From NCBI GenBank assembly GCA_965205505.1, contig CBDBHB010000009.1, positions 3,072,001-3,136,000 of the forward strand: a stretch of DNA of 64,000 nt, in the 5' to 3' direction. Below are positions 2,958-61,116 of this stretch, piece by piece (position 1 is the stretch's first letter; every line of letters begins with the position of its first letter). The notes beneath the pieces are model-generated. The model searched no databases. It saw only the letters and a program-made list of their open reading frames with translations, and was not told the origin of the DNA. Position numbers and translations under genes: made by a program. This DNA comes from Acidobacteriota bacterium (GTDB lineage Bacteria; Acidobacteriota; UBA890; WLXD01).

Positions 2958-3018
2958 GCCGTCGGCTCCAGCGTGGCGATCGGCCTACTCCAAAAAGGCG
3001 AGGTTGGGCAGCAATCTC

Positions 3019-3567
3019 ATGCGCAAGAAGCTCCGTATCCGTTACCCGTATCTGATAATGACCATTCTTACGGTGGGCACCCTGGCCTGCTCGTCGTCAC
3101 AGCCTCCCACAACGACCCCCATCCCGCCGTCCGCAACGCCGGTGGAACTGGAGCCGCGCGACGTTCGGGCCGAACCTGTCGAGCCGGCCATGCCGGAGCC
3201 CCCGGCCACAGCCGGGGCGGCCACTTCGGTCATGGACGGGGTGTATACCGTCGAGCAGAGCACCCGCGGCGAGGCCGCATATCGTCTCGCCTGCCAGAGT
3301 TGCCACAGGCCCACCTTGCGAGGCGGAATCGTCATCCCGACACTGGTGGGAGAGGATTTCATGTCCAAATGGGGTCGCATGTCGGCCGGCGACCTGTTCG
3401 AGAAACTACGCACCACCATGCCGCCTTCCGCGTCGCGCAGGCTCACCCGCGAGGAGTACGCCGACGTGGTGGCCTTCATCTTCAGCAAGAACGAATTTCC
3501 GCCCGGAGAGCAGGAGCTTGGCACCGACTTCGCCGAGCTCAAGGACATCCAGATCCAGCCGCAGTAG
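3019..3567 (+). CDS. Monoheme c-type cytochrome, probable lipoprotein
   Basis: Lipobox-like TLAC, Pro-rich linker, DGVYT..Q..RG, CQSCH heme motif, distal TMPP Met ligand. Confidence 0.85.
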   Translation: MRKKLRIRYPYLIMTILTVGTLACSSSQPPTTTPIPPSATPVELEPRDVRAEPVEPAMPEPPATAGAATSVMDGVYTVEQSTRGEAAYRLACQSCHRPTLRGGIVIPTLVGEDFMSKWGRMSAGDLFEKLRTTMPPSASRRLTREEYADVVAFIFSKNEFPPGEQELGTDFAELKDIQIQPQ

Positions 3568-21245: not shown

Positions 21246-21249
21246 TCGA

Positions 21250-25566: not shown

Positions 25567-27524
25567 GTGAAGAAGGGCGACAAGCATCTCGGTATGGATC
25601 GCCAGATCACTCGGCGTGACCTCCTCAATGGCGTCAGCGTGGCCATCGGGGCCTCAACCACCGGCGGGCGCCTGACTGCCGAGTCGCCCGAGGTTCGGCG
25701 CTACGCCACCCAGGAGACCCCTGAGGACTACTCTACCCGCCACGGCTGACCGGAATGCGAGGCAGCCACGAGGGCTCCTTCGAGGTGGCGCACGAGATGC
25801 GCTTTGGGAAGACCTGGGACGGCGCCGACGAATCCGGCGAGCACTACGACCTGATCGTCGTCGGCGCTGGGTTGAGTGGCCTCGCGGCGGCCTACTACTT
25901 CCGTAAGGCACTCCCCGAAGCCAAGGTCTTGATCCTCGACAACCACGATGACTTCGGCGGCCACGCCAAGCGTGTCGAGTTCACCGTCGGCGACCGGCAG
26001 CTCATCGGCTATGGCGGCACGCAGTTCATCACCGGTTACTACCCAGCCGAGGCCAAGCAGCTGCTGGACGACATCGGAGTGAGCGCCGAGCGCTTCCCGA
26101 GCGGGACCGCAACCGATCTTTATCGCGAGCTGGGGCTTGAAGGAGGGGTGTTCTTCGATCGGGAGACCTTTGGTGTCGACCGCCTTGTGGTCGGCGAGCC
26201 ACGCCGGGCGCGTGGACCGCAAGCAGAGCGCCGATGGACGGCGTTCCTCGACAAGACACCCCTGTCCGATGCAGCCAAGGCGGGCATCCTCCGGCTCTGC
26301 ACCGAGGATCGCGACTACCTGCCAGGGCTGACCGACGACGAGAAAATCGCCCGCCTGCGGAGGATGAGCTACCAGAGTTACATTCTCGACGTTGTAGGCG
26401 TCCACCCGGATGTGATCCCGTACCTGCTGCGGCGCGGCGATCCGAACGGCGCCGCCGGTATCGACTCGTACAGCGCCTGGGGTGCCCTACGAAGCGGCTC
26501 GTTCCCTGGTTTGGGCGGGCTCGGGCTCGATCGTCCAGCTCGCAATGCGGCGCCTGGCGACAACCCCTTCCAGGGCATCCATTTCCCGGATGGCAACGCC
26601 GGCATCGCCCGTTTGATCGTCCGCTGGCTCCTCCCGCGAGCGCTGCCGGGAGACACGATGGAGGACTCGGTTACTACGCCGATCCGCTATTCCGAGCTCG
26701 ACAAGGCGGGCGCCCCGGTGCGAATCCGGCTCAACAGCACGGTGGTTGGAGCGCGTCACGCCGGCGAGCGGCGCACCTCCAGCGAGGTCGTCGTGACCTA
26801 CGTCCAGGACGGACGGGCGGTTCGCGTGCGCGGCGACAACTGCGTCATGGCTTGCTACAACGCCATGATTCCCTACCTGTGCCCAGAGGTCCCTGAGGTC
26901 CAGAAGGAAGCGCTGAAGATGGCGGTGCGCAAGCCCTACGTCTACACGCAGGTGGCGATCCGCAACTGGACCTCGTTCGTTAATCTCGGTGTCGGTGCTA
27001 TCCACAGTCCCGGAGGTTTCCACGAGTTCATCGACCTCGATTGGGGCGTCAACGTCGGCGACTACCAGCACTCGGCGTCGCCGGACGAGCCGATCCTGCT
27101 GTGGTTGCAGCGCCTACCCATTCGACCAGGCCTATCGGCGCGTGACCAGTTTCGTGCCGGCCGCGAGGAGCTGCTGGCAACGTCGTTCGAGACCTACGAG
27201 CGCAACATCCGCGATCAGCTGGGCCGCGCCCTCGGCGAAGGAGGCTTCGATCCGGCTCGCGACATCGCCGGAATCACCGTGAATCGCTGGCCGCACGGCT
27301 ACGCAAGCGGTGGCAACGATCTCTACGACCCCGACTGGAGTTACGACGAGGCGCCCTGGGTGGTCGGCCGACAACGCTTCGGGCGGATCACCATCGCTAA
27401 CTCGGACGCGGCAGCGATCTCGTTGACGCAGGCGGCATTCGAGCAGGCGCACCGCGCCGTTCAGGAGCTACTGACCGACGTGATTCGCCCCGAGTTCCAG
27501 TATCCGTGGGCAGAGCGCACCTGA
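25567..27524 (+). pseudogene. SpdH-like FAD oxidoreductase paralog 2, frameshift near 25732
   Basis: GAGGAG before GTG 25567; (M)KKGDKHLGMDRQITRRDLLNG...EDY, then TAC TC TAC CCG shifts into YPPRLTGMRGSH; remainder intact to EFQYPWAERT. Confidence 0.85.
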
Positions 27525-27735
27525 GGCGAGGTGGTGCGCCGATCGCCGAGGGCAAAAGAGGGAGGGAGAGCTCGTCCATTGCTGGTGCCTCCCTGCAAGC
27601 CTACAATTCGATGGGAAATTGTAGTTTCTTGAGCACGAAGCGCGCATACGACGCGGGGCGGGGCGCAAGCGCTGGCGAGTACGTAGATTTCCGAGGTCAG
27701 ATCGACCGCGTTCCGATCGGTGAAGGAGTAGTGAG

Positions 27736-29259
27736 ATGAGCAAGAAAGACGATCACGACGAGAACGGCGGCCCGCGCGTAAGCCGCCGAGCCTTCGCAAA
27801 GGGCTCGGTCGCCGCAGGCACCGCGGCGGTGGCCCTTCCCAAGTCGCTGTTCGGCGCCACTCCGGCGACGACAGCCGCGACGACTAAGACCAATGGCCGT
27901 GCAGCGCGCGTGGAGATGCGCACTGAAACCGCCGCCTACGGTGGCAGCGGTGCGACTCCGCTGACGGCGCCGGTTGCCAAGAAGCCTGGCGTCAGTGGCT
28001 GGACAGAAGGCCTGACCATTCCCCACGAGTACTACACGGAGCCGCAGCACTTCGACGCCGACGAGGCGTTCGTGGCGGAGAATTTCTGGCAGTACACCGA
28101 TCAGGCGAGCCGTATTCCGGATCCGGGCGATTTCTACGTGTTCGAGTTCGGTCGCTCCGAGTCCATCCTCATCGTGCGCGGTCAGGACAACGAGATAAGA
28201 GGCTTCTACAACGTCTGCCGCCACCGCGGCTCGCGACTCTGCCGTCACGACGCCGATGCCAAGCCGAGCGACCCACGCCTGTCGGTCAAGCAACTCGGAC
28301 AGTCCGGTAGCTCACCGGTGTTCCGGTGCCCATATCACGCATGGACGTACGACACCGAGGGCAGCCTGATCTACGCCTACGGCATGCAGGACGACTTCGA
28401 CCCGGCCGACAACGGCCTGCTCCCGTGCCACACGCGGGTCGCCGAGGGTCAGGTCTTCGTCAATCTGTCGAAGTCAGAGACCCCACCGGACTTCGAGTCG
28501 GTGGTAGCTCGCATGCGCGCCCTCGCTCCGAAGTACAGCTTCAAGGACCTGAAGGTTGTGGCCCGTGAGTACTACCCAATCAACGCCAACTGGAAGCTTG
28601 CCCTTGAGAACTTCAAGGAGTGCTACCACTGCGGGCCGTCGCATCGGCCGCTGGTGACCACCCACAACTGGGATCACGACATCAGCGCCGAACAGAAGGC
28701 TGAAAAGGCCGCCGCGGTCGCCGATTGGGTGCCAGAGGAACACCGGCGGCGGCGACGCGGTAACCAGCAGCAGGGCGGCCAGGGCATGAGAGGCGGTATG
28801 AGCGGCGCCGGCGCCGAGTCGCTCCAGTTGACGGGACAGCTCAATCCCGGCTTCGTTACGGGCACCATAGACGGTAAAGCCGCGTCGATTCTGCTGCCCA
28901 ACATCGACGACTGGCACCACGAGACCAACGTCGCCACAACAGCCGAGTCAACCGGCTACTGGCAGTGCTACGACGATCACGTCGCGGTGGCTCGTTTCAC
29001 GCCGCGGGCGGAGAACTTCACCGATTGCGAGATCGTCTGGTTGGTGCACCCCGACGCCGTCGAGGGTCGCGACTACGACCCCGACAACGTCAAGGCGCTC
29101 TGGCACGTCACCATCCAGGAGGACATCTGGGTCACCGACAACAACCACGCCGGTATCGAGTCGAGTGCGTACACCGCCGGTCGATACTCGATCATCGAGG
29201 GCAGCCCGGCCCGCTTCGTGGGCTGGTACATGAAGGAGGTCGTCAAGGCGGGCAACTGA
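27736..29259 (+). CDS. Rieske non-heme iron oxygenase alpha subunit (GbcA/Stc2-like) with Tat-type leader, paralog A
   Basis: AAGGAG RBS; SRRAFAK; CRH...CPYH; NWKLALENFKECYHCGPSH; QED; YTAGRYS. Confidence 0.9.
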   Translation: MSKKDDHDENGGPRVSRRAFAKGSVAAGTAAVALPKSLFGATPATTAATTKTNGRAARVEMRTETAAYGGSGATPLTAPVAKKPGVSGWTEGLTIPHEYYTEPQHFDADEAFVAENFWQYTDQASRIPDPGDFYVFEFGRSESILIVRGQDNEIRGFYNVCRHRGSRLCRHDADAKPSDPRLSVKQLGQSGSSPVFRCPYHAWTYDTEGSLIYAYGMQDDFDPADNGLLPCHTRVAEGQVFVNLSKSETPPDFESVVARMRALAPKYSFKDLKVVAREYYPINANWKLALENFKECYHCGPSHRPLVTTHNWDHDISAEQKAEKAAAVADWVPEEHRRRRRGNQQQGGQGMRGGMSGAGAESLQLTGQLNPGFVTGTIDGKAASILLPNIDDWHHETNVATTAESTGYWQCYDDHVAVARFTPRAENFTDCEIVWLVHPDAVEGRDYDPDNVKALWHVTIQEDIWVTDNNHAGIESSAYTAGRYSIIEGSPARFVGWYMKEVVKAGN

Positions 29260-30257
29260 TCCCTAGCAGGAGTCGATCTACGGGTCGGCTCCCGTGTTGT
29301 TCATTGGATGCCGCGCGGCGCGCCTGAGCCCGTACCCGCCGACCACAGGGCCGAAGTGAAGGAACCCGGCGCGCCTATTGTCGTACCGCCTGCCAACGTG
29401 ATACTCATGCAGTCGGGTGACTTCGCTGGGGTGTGCGTTGAGATTGTCGCGCGATGTCCGAGCGCGACTGACCCGAACGATTACCGACGAATTTGTAGCG
29501 GCTTGAGATCGATCAGATCCAACTGGCGAGGCAAGTACAGATGAGCAAGAAAGACGACCACGACGAGAACGGTGGCCCGCGCGTAAGCCGCCGAACCTTC
29601 GCCAAGGGCTCGGTTGCGGCGGGCACCGCTGCTGTCGCCCTCCCCAAATCGCTCTTTGGCGCCACCCCGGCGACGGCCGCCGCAACGACGGCTACCTACG
29701 GTCGCGCGTCGCGCGTCGAGGCGCGCAACGAGAACATCGGGTACGGCGGGCGCGGTGCGGCTCCGCTCACCGCGCCCGTCGCCAAGAGGGCCAGTGTCAA
29801 CGGCTGGAAAGAGGGCCTCACTATTCCCGCCGAGTACTACATCGAGCCGAAGCATTTCGAGGCCGACGAGGCGTTCGTCGGCGAGAACTTCTGGCAGTAC
29901 ACCGATCAGGAGAGTCGTATTTCGAACCCAGGCGACTTCTATGTCTTCGAGTTCGGGCGTTCCGAGAGCATTCTCATCGTGCGCGGGAAGGACACCGAGG
30001 TGAGAGGCTTCTACAACGTCTGCCGCCACCGCGGCTCGCGACTCTGCCGTCACGACGCCGATGCCAAGCCGAGCGACCCACGCCTGTCGGTCAAGCAACT
30101 CGGACAATCCGGTAGCTCACCGGTGTTCCGGTGCCCGTACCACGCTTGGACGTACGACACCGAGGGCAGCCTGATCTACGCCTACGGCATGCAGGAGGAT
30201 TTCGACCCGGCCGACAACGGCCTGCTCCCGTGCCACACGCGGGTCGCCGAGGGTCAG
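28198..30257 (+). repeat. Near-identical ~255-bp tracts in Rieske paralogs A (28198-28452) and B (30003-30257)
   Basis: Manual alignment: first 104 bp identical, 6 mismatches in 255 bp. Confidence 0.8.
29378..29407 (+). promoter_or_regulatory. Putative sigma70-like promoter upstream of Rieske paralog B
   Basis: TTGTCG-N16-GATACT; shares the 11-mer CGTGATACTCA and spacing with 25463-25492. Confidence 0.35.
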
Positions 30258-31052
30258 ATCTTCGTCAACCTGTCGAAGTCCGACACGCCGCCGGATTTCG
30301 ATTCGGCAGTCAGCTCGCTCACGGCTCTGGCTCCCGAATACCACTTGAAAGACCTAAAGGTCGCGGCCCGCGAGTACTACCCGATCAACGCTAACTGGAA
30401 GCTGGCGTTGGAGAACTTCAAGGAGTGCTACCACTGCGGCCCGGCTCACCGGCCGCTGGTCACGACGCACAACTGGGATCACGACCTCAGCGATCAGCAG
30501 AAGACTGAGAAGGCCGCGGCGGTTGCCGCGTGGGTCCCGGAGGAGAGCCGCCGGCGACGTGAAAACGAAGATGCAGGCATGGCCGGCGAGGGCATGGACG
30601 GCACGCCCGGCTACGACCGCTTGACCGGGCTGCTCAACCCGGGCTTTGTCACCGGGACGATCGACGGCACCCAGGCGGCACCGTGGCTGCCTGGGAGGAA
30701 GGGAGACGACCACCGGACGGTGATCGCCACCACCGCAGAGTCGACCGGGTACTGGCAGTTCTACGACGATCACGTCATGGTGGTGCGGTTCACCCCGCGC
30801 ACGGAAAAGTTCACCGATGCCGAGATCGTCTGGCTGGTGCACCCCGACGCAGTCGAGGGTCGCGACTACGATCCCGAAAAGGTCAAGGGCCTTTGGCACG
30901 TCACGATCCAGGAGGACATCTGGATCACCGACAACAACCACGCTGGGGTCGAGTCGAGCGCGTACAGTGGCGGTCGCTACGGCACCCTCGAAGGCGGCCC
31001 GTCGAGCTTCGTCAACTGGTATATGAAGGAGATCGTCCAGGCCGGCGATTGA
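29541..31052 (+). CDS. Rieske oxygenase alpha subunit with Tat-type leader, paralog B
   Basis: SRRTFAK; same Rieske and mononuclear-iron motifs; colinear with paralog A. Confidence 0.9.
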   Translation: MSKKDDHDENGGPRVSRRTFAKGSVAAGTAAVALPKSLFGATPATAAATTATYGRASRVEARNENIGYGGRGAAPLTAPVAKRASVNGWKEGLTIPAEYYIEPKHFEADEAFVGENFWQYTDQESRISNPGDFYVFEFGRSESILIVRGKDTEVRGFYNVCRHRGSRLCRHDADAKPSDPRLSVKQLGQSGSSPVFRCPYHAWTYDTEGSLIYAYGMQEDFDPADNGLLPCHTRVAEGQIFVNLSKSDTPPDFDSAVSSLTALAPEYHLKDLKVAAREYYPINANWKLALENFKECYHCGPAHRPLVTTHNWDHDLSDQQKTEKAAAVAAWVPEESRRRRENEDAGMAGEGMDGTPGYDRLTGLLNPGFVTGTIDGTQAAPWLPGRKGDDHRTVIATTAESTGYWQFYDDHVMVVRFTPRTEKFTDAEIVWLVHPDAVEGRDYDPEKVKGLWHVTIQEDIWITDNNHAGVESSAYSGGRYGTLEGGPSSFVNWYMKEIVQAGD

Positions 31053-31076
31053 TCTTCCGACAAGCCGCTATGAACG

Positions 31077-31112
31077 CGCGGGAACCGATCTGCCGGTCGG
31101 TTCCCGCGTTTT
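31077..31112 (+). terminator. Rho-independent terminator
   Basis: CGCGGGAACCGATC-tgcc-GGTCGGTTCCCGCG 14-bp stem (one G-U) followed by TTTT, 25 bp after the stop. Confidence 0.75.
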
Positions 31113-31183
31113 GCTAATAGCTACGTGAAGGCGTCATGCAGCGCGCGGCGACCTAGTCGCACCTCGGACGGCGGAGCGAGCTG

Positions 31184-31672
31184 ATGTCGAAGAAAACTCC
31201 GGACGGGATCAACGGACCGAAAGTAAGCCGGCGGACGTTCGCCAAGTCGTCCGTCGCTGTCGTCACGGCAGCCGTGACTCTGCCCGATTCCCTGTTTGGT
31301 GCGCCGCCTCGTGCACCCGCAGCGACAACGCCGACACACCGGACAGTTCCGCGGGCGGAGTTGCCCGGGGAAGCGCCGGGCTACGGCGGCAGGGGTGCGC
31401 CGCGCGTGCCCATTACGGTCTCCGAGAGCAGCGGCGCCAACGGCTGGAAAGAGGGCGTCCATCCGGATGCCGTCGACGGTCGCGACTACGATCCCGACAA
31501 CGTCAAGGCGCTCTGGCACGTCACGACGACGGAAGATATCTGGCTTACCGATAACCACCACCTCGGCATCCAGTCAGGCGGCTATAGCTCCGGTCGCTAC
31601 GCCACCCACGAGGGCAGCCCGGCCCGATTCGTCAAGTGGTACATGGAACAGTTCGTCGACGCCGGCGATTGA
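31184..31672 (+). pseudogene. Internally deleted Rieske oxygenase paralog C (in-frame, 162 aa)
   Basis: Leader SRRTFAK...NGWKEG joined directly to VHPDAVDGRDYDP...EDIW...; about 340 aa including the Rieske motif and iron-binding His residues are missing; junction 31456/31457. Confidence 0.85.
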
Positions 31673-31777
31673 ACTTCGAGCTCCGTTGTGGGCTCGCGAA
31701 CGCCACCATCTGGAACCGTCCGGAGATCTCTGGCACCCTTGTCGGCGATCTCGCACCGACCGGACCCGAGGGACACG

Positions 31778-33769
31778 ATGACGAAGAACGATCGACAGCT
31801 CGGAATGGACCGCGACATCACGCGGCGTGACTTCCTGGGTGGCACCAGCGTTGCCATCGGTGGCTCGCTGCTCGCCGCCGGAACCGTTAGCGCATCACCG
31901 GCCGTGCCTGGAACGTCAATAGAGCAGACAGCGGTGTCCTACCCGGCGACCTGGAAGGTCGGCGACTACTACCCACCCAGGCTCACGGGCATGCGCGGCA
32001 GCCACCCCGGCTCCTTCGAGGCGGCGCATGCGGTGCGTGACGGCAAGCGCTACGACAACGTCACCGACGTCGACGAGACCTATGACCTGATCGTCGCCGG
32101 CGGTGGGCTCAGCGGGCTGGCGGCCGCGTACTTCTTCAAGAAGGCGCTTCCGGAGTCGAAGATTCTGATTCTCGACAACCACGACGACTTCGGTGGCCAC
32201 GCCAAGCGCAACGAGTTCGAGGTTGATGGCCGTACCGTTGTCACCTACGGCGGCACGGTGTATCTCACCGGGGCCTATACGCACGAGGGCGAAACACTCC
32301 TGCGCGACATCGGTCTCGACTGGGATCGTTTCAACAACAACACCGCCTCCAGCCGTGATCTATACGAGGGCATGGGCCTTCAACGCGGCGTGTTTTTCGA
32401 TCGGGAGACCTTTGGCGAGGACCACCTCGCTATCGGCGAACCCCGATCCGGGGCCAGCGCTGCGGACTGGGAGCAGTTCCTCGCCAGTTCGCCGCTGTCG
32501 ACGGCGGCGAAGCGCGACATCACGCGCCTATATACCGAGAATGCTGATTACCTGCCTGACCTCGGTCGGGAGCAAAAGATTGAGAAACTGCGCCGCATGA
32601 GCTATCAGGACTACATCCTCAACGTCGTCGGCGTGACGGTGGATGTGGTCCCCTATCTCCTGAAGCGGACCCTCGGCGGTCCCAACGGCGCTGCCGGCAT
32701 TGATTCGCTCAACGCGTATGCGGCGTTCCGGCACAACTCGCTCCCCGGGTTAAGCGGCCTTGGACTCGGGGATCGTCCGGATCGCAGCTGGCTCGGCGAC
32801 ACCCACAACCCCCTCGAGGGTATCCACTTCCCCGACGGCAACGCCGGACTCGCACGCCTGATGGTGCGGTGGCTGAACGCCGACGCGCTGCCGGGTAACA
32901 CGATGGAGGACTCGGTCACCACGCCGGTGCGCTACGAGACGCTGGACCGGCCCGACAACGACGTCCGCATCAGGCTCAACAGCACCGTGATCGACGTCAC
33001 CCACATGGGCGAGCGGCGCACCGCAAACGAGGTAGCGCTCACCTACGTGAGCGGTGACAAAGCGTACCGGGTACACGGTAGCACCTGCGTGCTGGCCTGC
33101 TACAACGCTGTCATTCCCCACCTGGTGCGGGATCTTCCGCAGGATCAGAAGGAGGCGCTCCACATGGCGGTGCGCACCGCCCGGGTATACACCAACGTGC
33201 TAATCCGCAACTGGCGGGCGTTCCACGAGCTCGGCCTCAACGGCATCCACTGTCCAGGTGGATTCCATCAGAGCATGACCCTCGACTGGTCGACGAAGAT
33301 CGGCGACTATGGCTTTCCCGAGTCACCCGACGAACCCATCGTGGTGCGCATGAACCGCGATCCGATCATGCCGGGCCTCAATGCTCGCGACCAGTTCCGC
33401 GCCGGACGCGAAGACATCCTCGCGACCTCGTTCGAGGACTTCGAGCGCAATATCCGCGATCAGCTCGACCGCGCCCTCGGGGCGAGCGGCTTCGACGCCG
33501 CCGACGACATCCTGGCGATCATCGTCAACCGCTGGCCGCACGGCTACGCCGGTGCCGCCAACGACCTCTACGATCCCGACTGGGGCTACGACGAGCCACC
33601 GTGGGTGCAAGGACGCAAGCGCTTCGGCCGCATCACGATCGCCAACTCCGACGCCGCCGCCATATGCCTGACCCAGGCGGCGTTCGACCAGGCGCATCGG
33701 GCGGTGAACGAGCTGCTCACCGACGTGCTGCGCCCGGAGTTTCAGTACCCGTGGGCGGAGCGGACCTGA
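31778..33769 (+). CDS. SpdH-like FAD oxidoreductase paralog 3
   Basis: MTKNDRQLGMDRDITRRDFLGG; same motifs as paralog 1; ends EFQYPWAERT. Confidence 0.88.
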   Translation: MTKNDRQLGMDRDITRRDFLGGTSVAIGGSLLAAGTVSASPAVPGTSIEQTAVSYPATWKVGDYYPPRLTGMRGSHPGSFEAAHAVRDGKRYDNVTDVDETYDLIVAGGGLSGLAAAYFFKKALPESKILILDNHDDFGGHAKRNEFEVDGRTVVTYGGTVYLTGAYTHEGETLLRDIGLDWDRFNNNTASSRDLYEGMGLQRGVFFDRETFGEDHLAIGEPRSGASAADWEQFLASSPLSTAAKRDITRLYTENADYLPDLGREQKIEKLRRMSYQDYILNVVGVTVDVVPYLLKRTLGGPNGAAGIDSLNAYAAFRHNSLPGLSGLGLGDRPDRSWLGDTHNPLEGIHFPDGNAGLARLMVRWLNADALPGNTMEDSVTTPVRYETLDRPDNDVRIRLNSTVIDVTHMGERRTANEVALTYVSGDKAYRVHGSTCVLACYNAVIPHLVRDLPQDQKEALHMAVRTARVYTNVLIRNWRAFHELGLNGIHCPGGFHQSMTLDWSTKIGDYGFPESPDEPIVVRMNRDPIMPGLNARDQFRAGREDILATSFEDFERNIRDQLDRALGASGFDAADDILAIIVNRWPHGYAGAANDLYDPDWGYDEPPWVQGRKRFGRITIANSDAAAICLTQAAFDQAHRAVNELLTDVLRPEFQYPWAERT

Positions 33770-33928
33770 TCGCATCACGGAGGGCGGAGGGACTCGGCAT
33801 GCTCCCTTCGGCCAGCGGTCACCGCTTGGGGGTCGAACGGCTCCTCTGCTCACGCATCATGGCTTCAGGGTGATGAGCGCCGTGCACGCGAGGCTGCTCG
33901 AAGGGAGCATGCCGACTGGAGGTACACC

Positions 33929-35944
33929 GTGAACACGACTGACCGCCAGCTCGGCATGGATCGTGACATCACGCGGCGCGATTTCCTCAACGGCACCAGC
34001 ATCGCGATCGGTGGCTCGCTGCTCGGCGCCGGAACTGCCGGCGCATCACCAGCCGTACCCGGAACCACGGCAAAGCAAGCGGGGCTGCCCTACCCCAAGA
34101 CCTGGGAAGTGGGTGACAACTACCCACCCAGGCTCTTGGGCATGCGCGGCAGCCACCCGGGCTCCTTCGAGGCGGCGCATGCCGTGCGTGACGGCAAGCG
34201 CTACGACGACGTTACCGACCTCGACGAGACCTATGACCTGATCGTCGTTGGAGGCGGCCTCAGCGGGCTGGCGGCCGCCTACTACTTCAAGAAGGCGCTT
34301 CCGGAGTCGAAAATTCTGATTCTCGACAACCACGACGACTTCGGCGGCCACGCCAAGCGCAACGAGTTCGAGGTCGACGGCCACACGGTGGTGACCTACG
34401 GCGGCTCCGTGTACATGACCGGTGCCTATACGCCCGAGGGTCTGACGATGCTCCAGGACATCGGCCTCGACTGGGACCGATTCAACAGCACCACTTCCAC
34501 TAGCTACGACCTGTATGGAGATGGCTACGGAGGAGTGGGCAAGATGGACCTTCAGGCCGGGGTGCTCTTCGATCGCGAGACCTTCGGGGAGGATCACCTT
34601 GCCGTCGGTGAGCCGCAGGGCCGCGCCAGCGCCGCCGATTGGGAGCGCTTCCTCGCCGGGGCACCGCTCTCGCCGCAGGCCAAGCGCGACATCGTTCGTC
34701 TGTACACCGAGAACGCCGACTATATGGCGGGCCTCAGTCGAGAGGAAAAGATCGCGAAGCTGCGCCGCATGAGCTATCAGGACTACATCCTCGACGTCGT
34801 CGGTGCGACGCCGGACGTGGTTCCCTACTTCCTGAAGCAGACGCTGGGGGGCCCGAATGGCGCCGCCGGCATCGATTCGCTCAGCGCCTACGTGGCGTTC
34901 CGGCACAACTCGCTCCCCGGGCTCCGTGGCCTCGGGCTCGGGGATCGTCCGGCTCGCAGCTGGCTCGGCGACACGTACAACCCACTCAATCGTCTCCACT
35001 TCCCCGACGGCAACGCCGGCCTCGCACGCCTGATCGTGCGCTGGCTCAACGCCGCCGACGCGCTGCCCGGCCATACGATGGAGGACTCGGTTACCACACC
35101 GGTGCGCTACGAGAGGCTGGACCGACCCGATGACGACGTCCGCGTCAGGCTCAACAGCACCGTGATCAACGCTACCCACGTGGGCGATCGGCGCACCGCA
35201 AGCGAGGTAGCGGTCACCTACGTGACCGGCGACACGGCGTACCGGGTGCGCGGCAGCACCTGCGTGCTGGCCTGCTACAACGCCGTCATTCCGCACATCG
35301 TGCGGGATCTGCCGCAGGAGCAAAAGGACGCGCTCCACATGGCGGTGCGCACCGCCCGTGTCTACACCAACGTCCTCATCCGCAACTGGCGGTCATTCGT
35401 CAAGCTCGGCATCAACGGCGCCCACTGCCCGGGGAGCTTCCACCAGTTCTTCAGCCTCAGCTGGACCACCCGGATCGGCGACTACGACTTTACCGAGTCG
35501 CCTGATGAACCGATCGTGGTGCGGATGAATCGCGATCCGATTGCGCCGGGCCTGAACGCACGCGACCAGTTCCGCGCCGGCCGCGAGAACATCCTCGCAA
35601 CCTCGTTCGAGGACTACGAGCGCAACATCCGCGATCAGCTCAACCGCGCGCTGGGGGCGGGTGGCTTCGACGCTGCTGACGATATCCTGGCGATCATGGT
35701 CAACCGCTGGCCGCACGGTTACGCCGGTGCCGCCAACGAGCTCTACGATCCCGACTGGGGCTACGACGAGCCACCGTGGCTGCAGGGACGCAAGCGTTTC
35801 GGCCGCATCACGATCGCCAACTCCGACGCTGCCGCCATATGCCTGGCCCAGGCAGCATTCGACCAGGCGCATCGGGCGGTGAGCGAGCTGCTCACCGACG
35901 TGCTGCGCCCGGAGTTCCAGTACCCGTGGGCGGAACGGACCTGA
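33929..35944 (+). CDS. SpdH-like FAD oxidoreductase paralog 4 (closest to paralog 3)
   Basis: GGAGG before GTG; ITRRDFLNG; long near-identical stretches with paralog 3. Confidence 0.88.
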   Translation: MNTTDRQLGMDRDITRRDFLNGTSIAIGGSLLGAGTAGASPAVPGTTAKQAGLPYPKTWEVGDNYPPRLLGMRGSHPGSFEAAHAVRDGKRYDDVTDLDETYDLIVVGGGLSGLAAAYYFKKALPESKILILDNHDDFGGHAKRNEFEVDGHTVVTYGGSVYMTGAYTPEGLTMLQDIGLDWDRFNSTTSTSYDLYGDGYGGVGKMDLQAGVLFDRETFGEDHLAVGEPQGRASAADWERFLAGAPLSPQAKRDIVRLYTENADYMAGLSREEKIAKLRRMSYQDYILDVVGATPDVVPYFLKQTLGGPNGAAGIDSLSAYVAFRHNSLPGLRGLGLGDRPARSWLGDTYNPLNRLHFPDGNAGLARLIVRWLNAADALPGHTMEDSVTTPVRYERLDRPDDDVRVRLNSTVINATHVGDRRTASEVAVTYVTGDTAYRVRGSTCVLACYNAVIPHIVRDLPQEQKDALHMAVRTARVYTNVLIRNWRSFVKLGINGAHCPGSFHQFFSLSWTTRIGDYDFTESPDEPIVVRMNRDPIAPGLNARDQFRAGRENILATSFEDYERNIRDQLNRALGAGGFDAADDILAIMVNRWPHGYAGAANELYDPDWGYDEPPWLQGRKRFGRITIANSDAAAICLAQAAFDQAHRAVSELLTDVLRPEFQYPWAERT

Positions 35945-36038
35945 TCGCGTCCTCGCCAACGCCGACGCGCTGGCACCCACCGAAGATCTCTGTCAGGCTT
36001 CGCGCCGACCGAGGCTACGCTGCTATCGAAGGACTGCC

Positions 36039-38033
36039 ATGAGCGCGAAAGACCGAGAGCTTGGGATGGACCGGGACATCACCCGGCGGGACTTCCTCAA
36101 CGGGGCGAGCATCGCGATCGGCGGGAGCGCCCTCGGTTCTAGCAGAATCGCGGGTACTTCAACGAAAGCGGTGACAGCAAGGCCTTCGGGCGGCGCGCCT
36201 ACGCAGCCCGGCGAGTACTACCCGCCGCGGCTGACTGGGATGCGGGGCAGCCATGAGGGCTCCTACGAGGTGGCGCACGAGATGCGCTACGGGAAGACCT
36301 GGGGCAACGCCGAGGACACCGGCGAGCGCTACGACTTGATTGTCGTCGGGGGCGGGTTGAGCGGTCTGTCGGCGGCGTATTTCTTCCGCAAGGCGTTGCC
36401 GGCGGCGCGGATTCTGATTCTCGACAATCACGATGACTTCGGGGGGCACGCGAAACGCAACGAGTTCGAGGTCGACGGCAAGCTGGTGATCGGCTACGGC
36501 GGCACGATGATGATCCATGGCGCCAACAGCTACCCGCATGAGGCCAAGGCGCTGCTGGAGGACATCGGGATCGACAAGCCGCGGTTCCTGAAAACAACCG
36601 CGCGCGATCGGAGTATCTACCGCGAGATGGGGCTCCAGGCGGGCATCTTCTTCGACAAAGAGACGTTTGGCTCCGACCACCTCGCGGTCGGTGATCCAGC
36701 TGGCTGGGGAGCGGTTCGTAGCACGCTCACATGGACGCAATTCCTTGCCGACACACCGCTTTCCGATGGCGTGAAGCGCGACATAGCGCGTGCCTACGAT
36801 GACAAGACCGACTATCTGGCCGGTTTGACCTCCGAGGAGAAGATCGCGCGACTACGGAGGATTAGCTACCAGGACTACCTGCTGAAGGTCGTCAAAGCGG
36901 ATCCCGGCGTCATGCCGTTCTTCATGCGCCGTGCCGAAGGCGGCTCCAACGGTGCCGCCGGGATCGACTCCTACAGTGCCTGGGGCGCGTTTCGGTCCGG
37001 TTGGCTTCCGGGCTTCGATGGGCTCGGCCTCGAGCGGCCGCCCCAGAGCTGGCTCGGCCCGGGGAACGACTTCGGCGACGACATCCATTTCCCCGACGGC
37101 AACGCCGCTGTGGCGCGACTGATCGTAAGGTGGTTGATTCCACGCGCCCTTCCCGGCACGACGATGGAAGATTCGGTGGCGACGCCAGTCAACTATGCTG
37201 CCATCGACGACAGCGGCAGCCCGGTTCGGATTCGCTTGAACAGCACGGCCGTCCACGTCAGCCACGTCGGCGAGCGGCGCTCCGCAGGCGAGGTTGAAGT
37301 GACCTATGTGCGCGGCGGCAAGGCGCACCGGGCACGCGGCGCCACCTGTGTAATGGCCTGCTACAACGCCATGATCCCGTATCTCTGTCCCGACTTTCCC
37401 GAGGAACAGAAGGCGGCGCTGAAGATGGCCGTACGCCAACCGCTCGTCTACACCAGCGTCATGGTGCGCAACTGGCGAGCGTTCCACGAACTCGGTATCA
37501 ACAGCTTCTACGGCCCGGGTTGCTACCACGGCAGTGCGATGCTGGACATGGGACGAAGTCTTGGGGGCTATACATGTGCGCGCACGCCTGACGACCCACA
37601 GCCCCTTCACCTGCAGCGAATGCCGGCCAACAAGCCCGGCCTTCCGGCTCGGGACCAGTTCCGGGCTGGGCGAGAGGAGCTGCTGGCCACGTCGTTCGAG
37701 TACTTCGAGTACCGCATCCGCGACGAGCTCGGACGGGCCCTGGCGGGCGGCGGCTTCGACCCTGCCGAAGACATCGGGGCGATCACCGTCAACCGCTGGC
37801 CGCACGGTTACGCGGGCGGCGCCAATGACCTTTACGATCCGGACTGGGGCTACGACGAGGTCCCCTGGGTCGTAGGCCGGAAGCGCTTCGGCCGCATCGC
37901 CATCGCCAACTCGGACGCCGCCGCCACCAGCCTGACGCACGCCGCCATGGACCAAGCGCATCGCGCCGTTCAGGAGCTCCTCGGTGACGTGATCAGACCG
38001 GAGTTTCAGTATCCCTGGGCTGAGCGGACCTGA
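36039..38033 (+). CDS. SpdH-like FAD oxidoreductase paralog 5
   Basis: MSAKDRELGMDRDITRRDFLNG; FAD motif; NRWPHGY; ends EFQYPWAERT. Confidence 0.88.
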   Translation: MSAKDRELGMDRDITRRDFLNGASIAIGGSALGSSRIAGTSTKAVTARPSGGAPTQPGEYYPPRLTGMRGSHEGSYEVAHEMRYGKTWGNAEDTGERYDLIVVGGGLSGLSAAYFFRKALPAARILILDNHDDFGGHAKRNEFEVDGKLVIGYGGTMMIHGANSYPHEAKALLEDIGIDKPRFLKTTARDRSIYREMGLQAGIFFDKETFGSDHLAVGDPAGWGAVRSTLTWTQFLADTPLSDGVKRDIARAYDDKTDYLAGLTSEEKIARLRRISYQDYLLKVVKADPGVMPFFMRRAEGGSNGAAGIDSYSAWGAFRSGWLPGFDGLGLERPPQSWLGPGNDFGDDIHFPDGNAAVARLIVRWLIPRALPGTTMEDSVATPVNYAAIDDSGSPVRIRLNSTAVHVSHVGERRSAGEVEVTYVRGGKAHRARGATCVMACYNAMIPYLCPDFPEEQKAALKMAVRQPLVYTSVMVRNWRAFHELGINSFYGPGCYHGSAMLDMGRSLGGYTCARTPDDPQPLHLQRMPANKPGLPARDQFRAGREELLATSFEYFEYRIRDELGRALAGGGFDPAEDIGAITVNRWPHGYAGGANDLYDPDWGYDEVPWVVGRKRFGRIAIANSDAAATSLTHAAMDQAHRAVQELLGDVIRPEFQYPWAERT

Positions 38034-40271: not shown

Positions 40272-40306
40272 CTCCGGTCTCCTGGTTGCGGCGGAGTTGT
40301 TCGAGG

Positions 40307-42208
40307 CTACTTCAGCCCGTTTGCCAACATCAGCTCCTGGACGGCTCGATCCGCCTGATCGATGGCGACGTTGGTGTACGCCGCCGCGCCAGCGTCGGCG
40401 TTGGCGATGGCGATCTTTCCGAAGGGCTTGCGGCCGAGCACGTGCGGACGCTCGGCATCGGGCACGTCCGGGTCGGCAAGCGTATCGTAGGTGTAGGCAT
40501 AGCCGTGCGGCCACCGGTTGGCGGTGATCGCCAGGATGTCCTCGACCGGGTCGAAGCCGCCGCCCGCGAGGGCGCGCGTCAGCTGATCACGAATCTCCAG
40601 CTCGATGGTCTCGAACGGGGTCATCAGCATATCGAGCATGCCGGCGCGCTGCTGGTCCTTGCGCGGCAGGCCAGGCTCGTTGGGGTTGCGCACCATGTGC
40701 AACACGATGGGCTCGTCGGGAGACTGTGTGCATTCGTAGCCCCCCATCGACACCGGATAGTCGAGGCTGCAGGAGCTGTGGTACATGGCCGGATAGCTGA
40801 TACGGGAGACTCCCAGCTCCTTGAATGCCCGCCAGTTTCTGATGAACACGTTGGTGTACATCATCGGTACCTTCACCGCGTAGCCGAGCGCCTCTTTCTG
40901 CGTTTGCGGAAGGTCGGGGACCAGGTATGGAATAACGTGGTTCCAGCAGGCGAGCAGACAGTTGCGGGCTCGTACCCGCACCATCTTGCCGTCCCGCACG
41001 TAGGCGCCGCGCACCCAGTCGGCGTGTTCGGGCGCGCCCTCGTGCTCCACCCGTACGACGGTGCTGTCGAGGCGCAGCCGCACCGTAGCCCCTTGCTCGT
41101 CGAGGCGGTCGTAGCGCAGCGGGGCTTTCAGCACCGACTGCATGTCGTGGTCGCCGGGCAGCGCGGCGGGAACCAGCCGGTTGATCAGCAGGCGCGCTAT
41201 GGTGGCGTTGCCGTCCGGGAAGTGGAAGCGGTAGGCCCGGCTGCCCGGCCAGCGCGGCTCGAGCCCGAGGTCGAGGCCGTCGAATCCGGGCGCTCCGCCC
41301 TTCGCCGCCTCCAGCGCCGGCAGCGTATCGACCCGCTTGTTGTTTCGGTAGCCGCGGCCGAGGAAGAACTTGATCGCCTCCGGGCTGACCTTTGCCACCT
41401 CGAGCAGGTAGTCCTGGTAGCTCGTCCTGGCGAGGCGGGCGCGCTTTTCGACGCGGCCCACGCCGGCCATGTAGTCGCCGTTGCTGGTGTGGATCCGGAT
41501 CAGATCCTGGCGCGCCTGCTCCGAGAACGGTGCTTTGCGGAAGAACTCCTCCCAGGACGCGTCTCCCGGCCCGACCACCAGCCGGTCGGCGCCGAAGGTC
41601 TCGCGATCGAAGAAGGTCGCCGAGCCCAACCCCGCGTAGACATTGCTGTCGACAAACTCGCCAGCACGCGCGACCTCGATGCCCAGATCCCGCACCAGAG
41701 CCTTGGCAGCATAGCTGTAGGGGAACGGTGAAACGATGCTCTGGGTGCCGCCGTAGCCGATCCAGGTCCGCTCCTTGTAGGTGAACTCGTTGCGCTTGGC
41801 GTGTCCACCGAAGTCGTCGTGGTTGTCGAGGATCAGAACGGTCTGATCGTTGCCGAGCGCTTGACGGAAGAAGTGGGCGGCCGACAGTCCCGAGAGCCCG
41901 CCGCCAACCACCACCAGGTCATAGACCTCGCCGGTGTCCACGGCGTCAGACAAGCTCTCGTAGGCGCCGTCGCGCAGACGGTGCCCCGCCTCGAACGAGC
42001 CCTCGTGGCTGCCGCGCAGCCCGGTGAGGCTGGGCGGGTAGCTGGTAGCTACACCCTCCGGCGTGAGGTTCGACCCTTTGAGCCCGCGCAGCGCGCTGCG
42101 TGTCGCCGCCCACGCGCCGACGCTGCCCACCGCGAAGCCGTTGACGAAATCACGCCGCGTGATGCCGCGGCCCATGCCGAGCTGGCGTGCCTTGACCCGA
42201 TCTACCAT
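40307..42208 (-). CDS. SpdH-like FAD oxidoreductase paralog 6 (divergent, no PWAERT tail)
   Basis: AGGAGG RBS; ITRRDFVNG, YPPSLTGLRGSH, YGGTQSI, NRWPHGYAY, AIDQADRAVQEL. Confidence 0.88.
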   Translation of the reverse strand: MVDRVKARQLGMGRGITRRDFVNGFAVGSVGAWAATRSALRGLKGSNLTPEGVATSYPPSLTGLRGSHEGSFEAGHRLRDGAYESLSDAVDTGEVYDLVVVGGGLSGLSAAHFFRQALGNDQTVLILDNHDDFGGHAKRNEFTYKERTWIGYGGTQSIVSPFPYSYAAKALVRDLGIEVARAGEFVDSNVYAGLGSATFFDRETFGADRLVVGPGDASWEEFFRKAPFSEQARQDLIRIHTSNGDYMAGVGRVEKRARLARTSYQDYLLEVAKVSPEAIKFFLGRGYRNNKRVDTLPALEAAKGGAPGFDGLDLGLEPRWPGSRAYRFHFPDGNATIARLLINRLVPAALPGDHDMQSVLKAPLRYDRLDEQGATVRLRLDSTVVRVEHEGAPEHADWVRGAYVRDGKMVRVRARNCLLACWNHVIPYLVPDLPQTQKEALGYAVKVPMMYTNVFIRNWRAFKELGVSRISYPAMYHSSCSLDYPVSMGGYECTQSPDEPIVLHMVRNPNEPGLPRKDQQRAGMLDMLMTPFETIELEIRDQLTRALAGGGFDPVEDILAITANRWPHGYAYTYDTLADPDVPDAERPHVLGRKPFGKIAIANADAGAAAYTNVAIDQADRAVQELMLANGLK

Positions 42209-59088: not shown

Positions 59089-60540
59089 ATGAACGACAAG
59101 TCGGGACATTCTGGTGATCGCAGCAACGCCTCCAAGGTAAGCCGGCGCGACTTCGCGCGCTCGTCGGTGGTTGCGGGCGCCGTGGCAGTGACTCTCTCCA
59201 CCCCGCTGCGTGCCAACACCGTCGAAGCGGCAGGCCGGAGTCTCGAGCAAGGGGGCGGCAGATTCCCGGATGGCTGGAGTCCGGGCACGACCATCCCCGC
59301 TAAGTACTACCTGGACGAGGAGATCTACCTCAAGGACGAGGCGATCATCAAAGACAATCTCTGGTTGCTAGCCGATCACGAGAGCCGCATTCCCGACGCC
59401 GGAGACTACTTCGTTTTCGCGTACGGGCGTGGCGACAGCATCCTCGTGGTACGGAACAACAAGGGAATGGTCAACGCGTTTCACAATGTCTGTCGCCATC
59501 GCGGATCACGTCTCTGTCGTCACGATGCGGACTCGGTTCCGGCCGATCCGCGTCTCTCCGTCAAGCAGCTGGGCCAGGCAGGCAGCTCCCCGGTGTTTCG
59601 CTGCCCATACCACGCCTGGACCTACGACATCGATGGCAGCCTGATCTACGCCTACGGCATGCAGGACGACTTCGATCCGGCCGCAAACGGCTTGCGGCGA
59701 TGCAATATCAAGACCTACGAGGGCCATATCTTCCTGCACCTCGGCGAGGGTGAAGCGCCCGACTTCGAGCCAACGGCGCAGAGCATCCGTCGGATTTGCC
59801 GGCGTCACGGCACGGCGCAGCTCAAGGTCGCGGCGCGACGCCAGTACCCAGTGCGCGGCAACTGGAAGCTCGCCGTGGAGAACTTCCTCGAGTGCTATCA
59901 CTGCGGACCGGCTCATCGGTCGCTGGTGACGGCCCATGACTGGGACTATGCGCTCTCACCCGCACAACGCGCCGAGATCGAGGAGGAACTGGATACCTGG
60001 GTCACTGGCGAGGCTCGCCCCGGAGACGGCGGAGGAGGAATGGGCGGTGGCAGCATCGCCGACGGATTGCGAAACAACGTTGGCGTTGGGCGGGGCTTCC
60101 TCAATCCGGGCGTCCAGACCGGATCGCTCGATGGCAGGCGAGTGGCGCCACTGCTGCCGACGTTCGACAAGGCAACGCATGGGTTCAGGGAAGCTGAGAC
60201 CGGATGGTCGAGCGCCTACTGGGCCGCCTACGACGATCACGTCGCGATTGCGCGCTTCACACCGCGGGACGTGGAGCTCACCGACTGCGAGATCCTGTGG
60301 CTGGTGCATCCGGACGCGCAGGAGGGCCGCGACTACGATGTCGAAGATCTGATTGCCCTGTGGCACGTGACCATCCAAGAGGATATCTGGATCGTCGAGA
60401 ACAACCATGCCGGTGTGCGATCGGGAGCATACGGAGCCGGACGCTACTCCATTCATGAGACTTTCAGCGGGGGCAGCCCTGGAGGCTTCGTGCGCTGGTA
60501 CATGGGGGTTCACCGTGGTGACGATCCCGGCCCGGTCTAA
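59089..60540 (+). CDS. Rieske oxygenase alpha subunit with Tat-type leader, paralog D
   Basis: AGGAG RBS; SRRDFAR; CRH-x34-CPYH; ENFLECYHCGPAH; QED; YGAGRYS. Confidence 0.9.
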   Translation: MNDKSGHSGDRSNASKVSRRDFARSSVVAGAVAVTLSTPLRANTVEAAGRSLEQGGGRFPDGWSPGTTIPAKYYLDEEIYLKDEAIIKDNLWLLADHESRIPDAGDYFVFAYGRGDSILVVRNNKGMVNAFHNVCRHRGSRLCRHDADSVPADPRLSVKQLGQAGSSPVFRCPYHAWTYDIDGSLIYAYGMQDDFDPAANGLRRCNIKTYEGHIFLHLGEGEAPDFEPTAQSIRRICRRHGTAQLKVAARRQYPVRGNWKLAVENFLECYHCGPAHRSLVTAHDWDYALSPAQRAEIEEELDTWVTGEARPGDGGGGMGGGSIADGLRNNVGVGRGFLNPGVQTGSLDGRRVAPLLPTFDKATHGFREAETGWSSAYWAAYDDHVAIARFTPRDVELTDCEILWLVHPDAQEGRDYDVEDLIALWHVTIQEDIWIVENNHAGVRSGAYGAGRYSIHETFSGGSPGGFVRWYMGVHRGDDPGPV

Positions 60541-60647: not shown

Positions 60648-61116
60648 ATGAAGAAGTCCGACCTCGACCTCGGGATGAATCGCCCGATCACCCGCCGCGA
60701 TTTCCTCAACGGTGCGAGCGTCGCCGTTGGTGGCGTGGGCGCCATCGGCGCCGCTTCGATGCCGTCAGGCGGAGTCGACGCGACCGAAGCAGGCAGCACC
60801 CACCAGGGCCCGGGTCCCTTCGGCGACGAGTACTACCCGCCATCCGGACCGGGATATCGAAGCGATCACCGTCAACCGTTGGCCGCATGGTTACGCCGGA
60901 GCCGGAAACGATCTGTACGACCCGGAATGGAGCTACGACGAGGCGCCGTGGGTCGTCGGTCGCAAGCGCTTCGGTCGCATTACCATCGCCAATTCCGACG
61001 CGGCTGCAGTGTGTCTGACCTCGGCCGCCTTCGATCAGGGGCATCGCGCTGTTCAGGAGCTACTCACGGACGTCATTCGGCCTGAGTTCCAGTACCCCTG
61101 GGCGGAGAGAACCTGA
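60648..61116 (+). pseudogene. Internally deleted SpdH-like paralog
   Basis: MKKSDLDLGMNRPITRRDFLNG...DEYYPP fused out of frame near 60842 to PDRDIEAITVNRWPHGY...EFQYPWAERT; about 1.5 kb missing. Confidence 0.9.

Follow-up and report, generated by a model that had tools for sequence, protein, structure and literature searches.

From where does an oxygenase take its electrons if it works outside the cytoplasm? This question is raised by a 64,000-nucleotide stretch of DNA (below, the window) from an Acidobacteriota bacterium (contig CBDBHB010000009.1, positions 3,072,001 to 3,136,000), in which genes for Rieske oxygenases with a twin-arginine (RR) leader stand on one strand with genes for flavoproteins similar to the spermidine dehydrogenase SpdH of Pseudomonas aeruginosa. 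Known oxygenases of the Stc2/GbcA/CntA type work in the cytoplasm with NAD(P)H reductases. A first-pass annotation of the window had proposed that the SpdH-like enzymes oxidise amines outside the cytoplasm and may supply electrons to the exported oxygenases, directly or through cytochrome c. Our analysis led to a related reading, whose chances we put slightly below even: the window would hold several copies of a periplasmic amine-dealkylation module, in which haem proteins (a small cytochrome c, called cX here, and the SpdH-like enzymes) feed the oxygenase in place of an NAD(P)H reductase. The genes are named as in the table below, and coordinates are given in the numbering of the window.

The Rieske proteins of the window look like working oxygenases, since both sets of their cofactor residues are conserved. 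The ligands of the Rieske centre of RieskeB (C161, H163, C198 and H201; Pfam PF00355) and the residues of its iron site (E295, H298, H303 and D459) are invariant in 40 aligned sequences. Both sets align with the respective motifs of the stachydrine demethylase Stc2, and by comparison with the iron site of Stc2 we assigned the 2-His-1-carboxylate site and the bridging acidic residue. The catalytic domain PF00848 is matched in the Rieske proteins at E values of 1e-25 to 1e-28. Their mature part (residues 91-498, approximately) is homologous to Stc2 and its relatives with an E value of about 1e-53. The best NCBIfam model is GbcA (NF058607), which gave 218.7 and 233.0 bits at a cut-off of 670. With scores so far under the cut-off, the proteins are relatives of GbcA and not GbcA itself.

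Two features set these proteins apart. The first is a conserved 17-residue insert, HDADxxPxDPRLSVKQLG (RieskeB 171-188), within the loop that binds the [2Fe-2S] cluster; Stc2 and 3N0Q do not have it. The spacing from CxH to CxxH is 34 residues in 119 of the 120 best database homologues. Among the 49 long-spacing sequences from this genome and from fetched loci, it is 34 in 45 and 42-44 in the remaining four, and in 78 leaderless relatives it is 16-19. Three apparent leaders in proteins with the short spacing turned out to be pattern matches upstream of Pelagibacter genes, and six sequences with a spacing of 34 and no RR motif are truncated, frameshifted or leaderless. In a tree of 106 sequences, the 43 that bear the insert form one side of a branch with an SH-aLRT support of 100, and the same division is obtained when the loop columns are left out. 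The leader and the insert co-occur on one branch of the tree and thus both mark one clade, which we call the exported-type clade.

The second feature is the leader. The N-terminus of the Rieske proteins has approximately 90 extra residues: a basic stretch is followed by VSRR(D/T/A)FAK(T/G)SVAAG(A/T)AAVALP. A motif of the twin-arginine translocation (Tat) type, a mildly hydrophobic stretch and an end resembling A-x-A can be read directly in it: SRRTFAKGSVAAGTAAVALP. R17 and R18 of RieskeB are invariant in the 40-sequence alignment. The first-pass annotation ascribed an RR leader to every member of the array. By motif this is so, with SRRxFAK in the Rieske proteins and ITRRDF in the SpdH-like ones. 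Among the 120 best Rieske homologues, 111 have the RR motif, down to 48% identity. In six of the nine homologues without it, a truncated gene call begins within the hydrophobic stretch or shortly behind it; of the other three, one is a fragment and two (P0024 and P0071) start at the mature domain. In this genome, all 17 full-length paralogues whose N-terminus is present have the RR leader, and the 18th is cut at the N-terminus. In the AlphaFold2 model of RieskeB (predicted local distance difference test score 72), residues 1-90 and 162-192 have low confidence; for residues 1-90 this is expected of a signal peptide with a linker. From the leader we infer that the Rieske proteins are exported folded through the Tat pathway. 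The genome has two full matches to TatC (221 and 167 bits) and one fragment. This truncated third copy (C9:2059140-2059433; L115 2892-3287, minus strand) covers the first 97 or so of 208 profile positions and lies approximately 800 bp downstream of a doubled Rieske-SpdH pair (C9:2060265-2068085). The linker that follows the leader (RieskeB residues 36-90, approximately; window 29646-29810) is of low complexity and carries a semi-conserved YGR..RV......GYGG.GA in many members.

The flavoproteins of the window are ordinary members of the SpdH family. A search of the PDB matched them to P. aeruginosa SpdH at an E value of 1e-126 (residues 61-654 against 31-619), and they carry the Rossmann motif for flavin adenine dinucleotide (FAD; Pfam PF13450). 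The haem ligands of P. aeruginosa SpdH, His54 and His562, correspond in the alignment to H84 and H596 of SpdH4, and all of 36 homologues have these two residues. According to PMC12564564, His54 and His562 hold a surface-exposed haem b in the P. aeruginosa enzyme, electrons pass from FAD to haem b, and cytochrome c is among the acceptors in vitro. Direct electron transfer to an electrode is also described there, with an onset potential of -0.14 V versus Ag/AgCl, which we converted to an onset near +0.06 V for haem b. The Tat leader is not new for the family either: PMC6085387 lists PA3713 (SpdH), with its RR signal peptide, as a P. aeruginosa Tat substrate and credits the entry to 'This work'. 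An RR-type motif is present in 116 of the 120 best database homologues of the SpdH-like proteins, and the NCBIfam model TAT_signal (TIGR01409; cut-off 16.7 bits) gave 18.0 bits for SpdH3, 16.6 for SpdH4 and 16.7 for SpdH5.

Both families are expanded in the host genome. The assembly of 5.98 Mb (96% complete) has 18 full-length Rieske genes of the exported type and 28 SpdH-like genes. Two genomes of the same genus have 28 (G069) and 25 (G130) SpdH matches, and where the Rieske clade occurs in other families, a genome has one copy or two. Identity among members of the SpdH-like family is approximately 45-96%, and judging by this divergence, one substrate shared by all 28 paralogues is unlikely.

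The two families are linked. A co-oriented SpdH gene lies within 700 bp of 6 of the 18 Rieske genes; the expected number is 0.18, and none of 5000 random placements reached six, with the restriction that tandem duplicates are not independent. The pairing seen in the window recurs elsewhere, in other genomes as well as on metagenome contigs. In 80 loci from genome contigs, the fetched flanks contained a SpdH homologue at six of nine insert-type loci versus one of 71 leaderless loci. The same was found for 10 of 15 metagenome loci above 400 bits, two of which are near-identical and one of which has a weak match. The order is Rieske then SpdH in 10 of 11 adjacent pairs, and in nine of those ten the gap is -19 to +187 nucleotides. 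Over 10 pairs, the identity matrices of the Rieske and SpdH proteins correlate with a Mantel r of 0.87 (p 1e-4, 10000 permutations), to which orthologous pairs contribute. The informative part of this co-divergence is that paralogous Rieske lineages stay with their own SpdH lineages: there are four lineages of pairs, which are approximately 47-58% identical to one another in both families.

At an E value of 1e-100 or better, the exported-type clade was found in 8 of 401 sampled genomes of the phylum. Five of the eight are of the window's genus, which has no further genome in the sample, and three are not. A scan of one of the families of these three found the clade in 5 of 29 genomes and added three more. 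In metagenomes it is widespread, with 2133 homologues at 1e-20 or better among 8000 candidates scored. Related database records are titled Acidobacteriota or Vicinamibacteria. A Rieske gene truncated by a contig edge, 48% identical to RieskeB, was found in a record titled uncultured Woeseia sp. (L010), and a SpdH homologue of a Woeseia sp. (P0200; Gammaproteobacteria) is 55% identical to SpdH4. The Woeseia titles of these two homologues suggest that the module may extend beyond Acidobacteriota.

We also assessed whether a reductase is encoded. The first-pass annotation had reported none in the 64 kb, and for the families PF00175 and PF00111 this statement stands: the genome has two matches to PF00175 (290-residue frames) and 13 to PF00111, and none of them lies inside the window. 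The same two families revealed no fused reductase of the GbcB type, with domains of ferredoxin-NADP reductase (FNR) and [2Fe-2S] ferredoxin, anywhere in the genome; the nearest pair of matches is 37 kb apart, and FAD_binding_6 and glutathione-reductase-type ferredoxin reductases were not searched. Neither PF00175 match adjoins a Fer2 match or a Rieske gene. The window does contain an Oxidored_FMN/Pyr_redox_2 flavoprotein (54008-55981, minus strand), which is not of the GbcB type. It stands beside an aldehyde dehydrogenase (56000-57460, minus strand) and is of the same kind as the neighbours of cytoplasmic Stc2-like genes; the genome thus also has parts of a cytoplasmic amine demethylation. For the Rieske paralogues that lie outside the window, we inspected 96 neighbouring genes. 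Most of them encode secreted-type hydrolases (peptidases of families S9, S15, M28 and M24, Amidohydro_3 and hydrolases of the beta-lactamase family), and a nitrile hydratase, a creatininase, an amine oxidase and a TonB-type receptor also occur. No ferredoxin, reductase or cytochrome c was found among these 96.

A cytochrome c does stand beside the Rieske gene in other genomes. The neighbours of the Rieske genes in loci without SpdH are small monohaem cytochromes c (156-203 aa; Cytochrome_CBB3, PF13442), and they are orthologous to cX of the window: an alignment of five orthologues shows a shared mature domain, CxxCH and a conserved Met-Pro. The Met of this pair is probably the sixth haem ligand, as in class I c-type cytochromes. 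Using a profile of five copies, we found cX directly beside an exported-type Rieske gene in nine loci: L005, L007, L094, L116 (genome G038), L117 (G254), L118 (G347), L122 (G418), L123 (G410) and L124 (G417). Thus, cX adjoins the Rieske gene in all six genomes outside the window's genus that the genome search had found (G038, G347, G410, G417, G418 and G254). In G254 the order is SpdH-Rieske-Rieske-cX on one strand, and in G418 an SpdH-like gene, a Rieske gene and cX stand in one run. The cytochrome domain of cX is common: at 1e-15 it occurs in 51 of the 401 genomes. Outside the genus, however, the top three matches (139, 125 and 125 bits) are exactly those beside Rieske genes, and the others have at most 111 bits. 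The SpdH1-cX pair of the window is kept in G069 and G130. Counting CxxCH motifs beside the SpdH paralogues of this genome gave no regular cytochrome c neighbour other than the cX of the window, in a gene list that was incomplete, since a filter on GC3 and overlap had removed both cX and RieskeD of the window. We also considered, and rejected, that cX and the acidic-looking insert of the Rieske proteins might be complementary in charge: four of five mature cX proteins are themselves acidic (pI 4.8-5.1) and one has a pI of 7.7, so that there is no simple complementarity. Among solved structures, cX gave only weak matches (35 bits at most), with the dihaem cytochrome c subunit of bc1 complexes from actinobacteria, and we do not use them as an argument.

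Taken together, these genes suggest the following scheme. A Stc2/GbcA-type Rieske monooxygenase, exported by Tat, would hydroxylate the carbon that adjoins the nitrogen of a quaternary or tertiary amine, a substrate class assumed by analogy with Stc2, GbcA and CntA, and an aldehyde would be released. The SpdH-like enzyme encoded downstream would oxidise the next C-N bond and load its surface haem b. The two electrons needed for each turnover of the oxygenase would come from periplasmic haem proteins. Of these, cX is the most conserved candidate donor, and SpdH-type dehydrogenases would be one source of electrons for cX where they are present. Each of these electron-transfer steps we infer from the gene content. 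An oxygenase can only accept electrons; therefore, a dedicated operonic cytochrome c is best explained as its donor, also in the genomes in which no SpdH was found. SpdH-type enzymes reduce cytochrome c and would feed the same carrier. By analogy, the chemistry fits: a quaternary nitrogen is closed to attack by a flavin amine dehydrogenase but open to an oxygenase of the Stc2/GbcA type, and the product of the oxygenase suits the flavoenzyme. The electron balance would fit as well, with two electrons released by the flavoenzyme and two needed by the oxygenase. The 17-residue insert beside the cluster may be an adaptation to the new donor. In its boldest form, the scheme would describe the first Rieske oxygenase outside the cytoplasm, with electrons passing from an amine through SpdH and cX to an exported Stc2-like monooxygenase that dealkylates the quaternary or tertiary precursor of that same amine; methylated amines would be degraded in the periplasm at the expense of O2 alone, with no NAD(P)H and with the insert as the adaptation to the donor. 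We regard this complete chain as doubtful.

Several observations weigh against supply by haem proteins. The sole high-scoring copy of cX in the window's genome adjoins SpdH1 and no Rieske gene. The potentials are unfavourable as well. The His/Met pattern of a cytochrome such as cX usually means a positive potential. The Rieske centre of known oxygenases lies well below zero, and the motif CxH...CxYH of these proteins is, we assume, of this low-potential kind. Thus, transfer from cX or haem b to a low-potential Rieske centre would be uphill, unless the centre of this clade is shifted. As for the claim that SpdH supplies the electrons directly or through cytochrome c, linkage, co-divergence, the haem ligands and the candidate carrier cX speak for it; the notion of SpdH as a necessary supplier did not hold, and the adjacency of the genes also fits consecutive reactions.

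Such reactions are the core of the explanation that survives best next to supply by haem proteins. The Rieske and SpdH-like enzymes would catalyse successive steps on one family of amines, in the way of the cytoplasmic pairs Stc2 and StcD or GbcA and DgcAB, the electrons of SpdH would go to respiration, and the oxygenase would have another donor. In 23 loci of leaderless relatives, the Rieske gene often stands directly after an Oxidored_FMN/Pyr_redox_2 (StcD/DgcA-like) or a DAO-GCV_T (DMGDH-like) gene, and a Pfam scan revealed no FNR-type reductase among 58 neighbours in these loci. When the 80 loci were scanned by motif, no fused FNR/[2Fe-2S] reductase was found in any of them, with a pattern too crude for this to carry weight. 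Since the cytoplasmic relatives also adjoin amine flavoproteins, the adjacency and co-divergence of SpdH can be explained by consecutive demethylation steps, with no electron transfer needed; co-divergence of the pairs is expected from co-evolving substrate specificity. Furthermore, SpdH is not an obligatory partner, since three genomes of one genus (g47), all with an exported-type Rieske gene, yielded no SpdH homologue. In G038 (100% complete) and G347 (92%) none was found with a protein query at 1e-50 or with the family alignment at 1e-3, which gave only Rossmann-motif matches of at most 25 bits; in G410 (84%) none was found with a protein query at 1e-30. However, a periplasmic oxygenase is then left without a reductant, and the presence of cX beside the Rieske gene in nine loci, those of the three genomes in which no SpdH was found included, is not explained. 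We consider this explanation unlikely.

Another version of electron supply dispenses with the carrier: SpdH would dock on the neighbouring Rieske protein, and its haem b would itself reduce the [2Fe-2S] centre, cytochrome c being merely the outlet to respiration. The tight, often overlapping Rieske-SpdH pairs, the four co-diverging lineages and the conserved clade-specific insert beside the Rieske centre would all agree with docking, as would the surface exposure of haem b in the solved SpdH (PMC12564564). The same three genomes of g47 are at odds with it. Moreover, for 12 of the 18 Rieske genes here, no SpdH gene on the same strand lies within 700 bp, which also counts against supply by haem proteins in general. 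A direct transfer is rather improbable in our view. Prediction of a complex of SpdH4 (residues 63-654) and RieskeB (residues 100-503), each with its alignment, gave a score of 0.00 in both runs, with controls not folded, and we draw no conclusion from it.

It is also conceivable that the Rieske proteins are not exported at all. The RR N-terminus would then have another role or be inactive, and cytoplasmic enzymes would share an unlinked reductase. The model TAT_signal listed no match on the Rieske leaders, and the genome has the two FNR-like genes and the 13 Fer2 matches. One paralogue in the genome (C8:682919-684172) is leaderless and Stc2-like with a short loop; it presumably needs a reductase too, so a cytoplasmic reductase is likely present. 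In addition, P0024 and P0071 have the insert but no leader. Against this stand the invariant RR, the conserved hydrophobic stretch and the A-x-A-like end, kept in 111 of 120 homologues to 48% identity, as well as the constant company of leader and insert and the nature of the conserved neighbours, a Tat-exported dehydrogenase and a c-type cytochrome, which are both periplasmic. We therefore hold a cytoplasmic location to be quite improbable. As to the leaderless insert-bearing proteins, P0071 occurs on 12 contigs, and both start at the mature domain without an RR leader (L085/L086 7542-9221). In L085, two SpdH genes lie within 8 kb of the leaderless Rieske gene. Such members could work in the cytoplasm or be carried out together with an exported partner.

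Finally, the array might be no more than a set of recent duplicates in decay that have little function left. This notion hardly deserves credit: one gene of the window is frameshifted, two are remnants of internal deletions and array content differs among genomes of the genus, but most copies are intact with invariant cofactor residues, copy numbers are kept across the genus (in G069 and G130, as above), and three short metatranscriptome contigs, weak evidence as the library may hold DNA, are identical to RieskeA, RieskeB and SpdH3. These contigs (195-256 nucleotides) come from run X20, which contains 0.07 of the sampled words, and coincide with the window at 29113-29307, 30832-31085 and 32551-32806; they are a hint only and give no level of transcription.

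The integrity of the array was examined gene by gene. Seven co-oriented reading frames span 25567-38033, and the order given in the first-pass annotation, SpdH2-RieskeA-RieskeB-RieskeC(remnant)-SpdH3-SpdH4-SpdH5, was recovered in full on the plus strand, with the addition that SpdH2 is frameshifted. A contig of the independent run X4 (depth 2) is 2 bases shorter at 25731, which brings the leader and the body of SpdH2 into one frame; run X1, possibly of the source sample, agrees with the window in this region. The orthologue of SpdH2 in a genome of the same genus, G118, is a single frame. The array of G118 (locus L119) reads SpdH2-RieskeA-RieskeB-SpdH3-SpdH4, and no counterpart of the RieskeC remnant was matched there. 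In RieskeC, Pfam matches only the end of the catalytic domain, and the internal deletion is in frame. The earlier annotation also listed a second Rieske-SpdH pair at 59089-61116. Its Rieske gene is intact; its SpdH partner is an out-of-frame remnant. The remnants of RieskeC and SpdH7 share one pattern, in which the leader and the C-terminal end are retained and the middle is lost, in frame in the former and out of frame in the latter, and they look like products of recombination between tandem paralogues.

Features of the window: Rieske oxygenases, SpdH-like dehydrogenases and cytochrome cX
Feature	Position	Strand	Description
SpdH1	948..2957	+	SpdH-like FAD/haem b dehydrogenase with RR leader; start MKKSDRELGM; Pfam NAD_binding_8; ITRRDF; 879 bits to SpdH4
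cX	3004..3567	+	Small monohaem c-type cytochrome; CxxCH and conserved Met-Pro; Pfam Cytochrome_CBB3; 46 nt 3' of SpdH1
SpdH2	25567..27524	+	SpdH-like; frameshift near 25731; leader 25567 to about 25731, body 25734-27524
RieskeA	27736..29259	+	Rieske oxygenase alpha subunit, 507 aa; Pfam Rieske and Ring_hydroxyl_A; leader SRRAFAK
RieskeB	29541..31052	+	Rieske oxygenase alpha subunit, 503 aa, Tat-type leader; Pfam Rieske and Ring_hydroxyl_A
RieskeC remnant	31184..31672	+	162 residues; leader and linker fused in frame to C-terminal 70 aa (approximately)
SpdH3	31778..33769	+	SpdH-like FAD/haem b dehydrogenase, Tat-type leader
SpdH4	33929..35944	+	SpdH-like FAD/haem b dehydrogenase, Tat-type leader; H84 and H596 are the aligned haem ligands
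SpdH5	36039..38033	+	SpdH-like FAD/haem b dehydrogenase, Tat-type leader
SpdH6	40307..42208	-	More distant SpdH-like paralogue with RR leader; 549 bits; GITRRDF
RieskeD	59089..60540	+	Intact Rieske oxygenase with Tat-type leader; closest relative is the Rieske gene of locus L004, where the SpdH gene comes next
SpdH7 remnant	60648..61116	+	Leader from 60648 and C-terminal 90 aa (approximately) from 60853 in different frames; middle deleted

Other genes of the window show further signs of local decay. A DUF3179 gene is apparently split in two frames (61228-61554 and 61895-62458, plus strand), and the frame of an ABC ATPase (20895-21287, minus strand) spans only the first half of the domain. Between SpdH5 and SpdH6 lies a 790-residue frame (38142-40514, minus strand) whose N-terminus is signal-like and for which Pfam gave nothing at 1e-4. 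The array is flanked by two dehydrogenases dependent on pyrroloquinoline quinone (PQQ), a dihaem-type cytochrome c and a glutathione-dependent formaldehyde-activating enzyme (22264-24219, minus strand, and 43176-43958, 43583-45628 and 42433-42813, plus strand). PQQ dehydrogenases also occur near the Rieske-cX pair in L005 and L007. These flanking enzymes could process aldehydes or serve as extra sources of electrons.

The SpdH side of the system is known biology, and the exported Rieske clade with its neighbourhood of haem proteins appears to be undescribed: a full-text literature search, judged by titles and with subscription journals outside its reach, gave nothing on an exported Rieske oxygenase or on coupling of SpdH to a Rieske protein. 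If supply by haem proteins is true, it would be a new way to drive the activation of oxygen and would show that the periplasm can be a site of oxygenase chemistry on organic nitrogen. It would also account for the expansion of both families, to 18 genes for Rieske proteins and 28 for SpdH-like ones within 6 Mb. Since SpdH transfers electrons directly to electrodes (PMC12564564), the enzymes could serve as reductase-free or electrode-driven demethylases.

Of the systems already known, SpdH of P. aeruginosa (PA3713; PDB 7D9F-7D9J) has the same FAD motif, both histidines of haem b and the Tat leader. The difference lies in the genome studied here, which has 28 paralogues, a quarter of them directly 3' of a Rieske gene and one 5' of cX. 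On the oxygenase side, Stc2 (PDB 3VCA and 4QUP), its Ruegeria homologue 3N0Q and the group of GbcA, BmoA and CntA share the Rieske and iron-site motifs and are homologous in the mature part; the cytoplasmic relatives likewise adjoin a gene for an amine-oxidising flavoprotein. In contrast to that group, this clade has the approximately 90 additional N-terminal residues, the 17-residue insert in the [2Fe-2S] loop and a separate branch of the tree. The two-component type of GbcA, Stc2 and CntA differs from the system of the window, which has the RR leader, haem proteins as neighbours and no fused GbcB-type reductase found with PF00175 and PF00111. To our knowledge, all Rieske oxygenases characterised so far receive their electrons from NAD(P)H or ferredoxin, within a cell or an organelle. 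The methanesulfonate monooxygenase MsmA is a Rieske oxygenase in which the two halves of the cluster motif also stand unusually far apart; this cytoplasmic enzyme comes with a reductase and a ferredoxin of its own. Export of a Rieske protein by Tat also has precedents. One is the small subunit of arsenite oxidase. Another is the Rieske subunit of bc1, which PMC6085387 names as a Tat substrate; as in the proposed module, a [2Fe-2S] Rieske centre crosses the membrane by Tat and works with c-type cytochromes. The Rieske proteins of bc1 and arsenite oxidase are, however, small high-potential carriers without an oxygenase domain, whereas in the proteins of the window the Rieske domain is fused to an intact catalytic domain with a mononuclear iron site.

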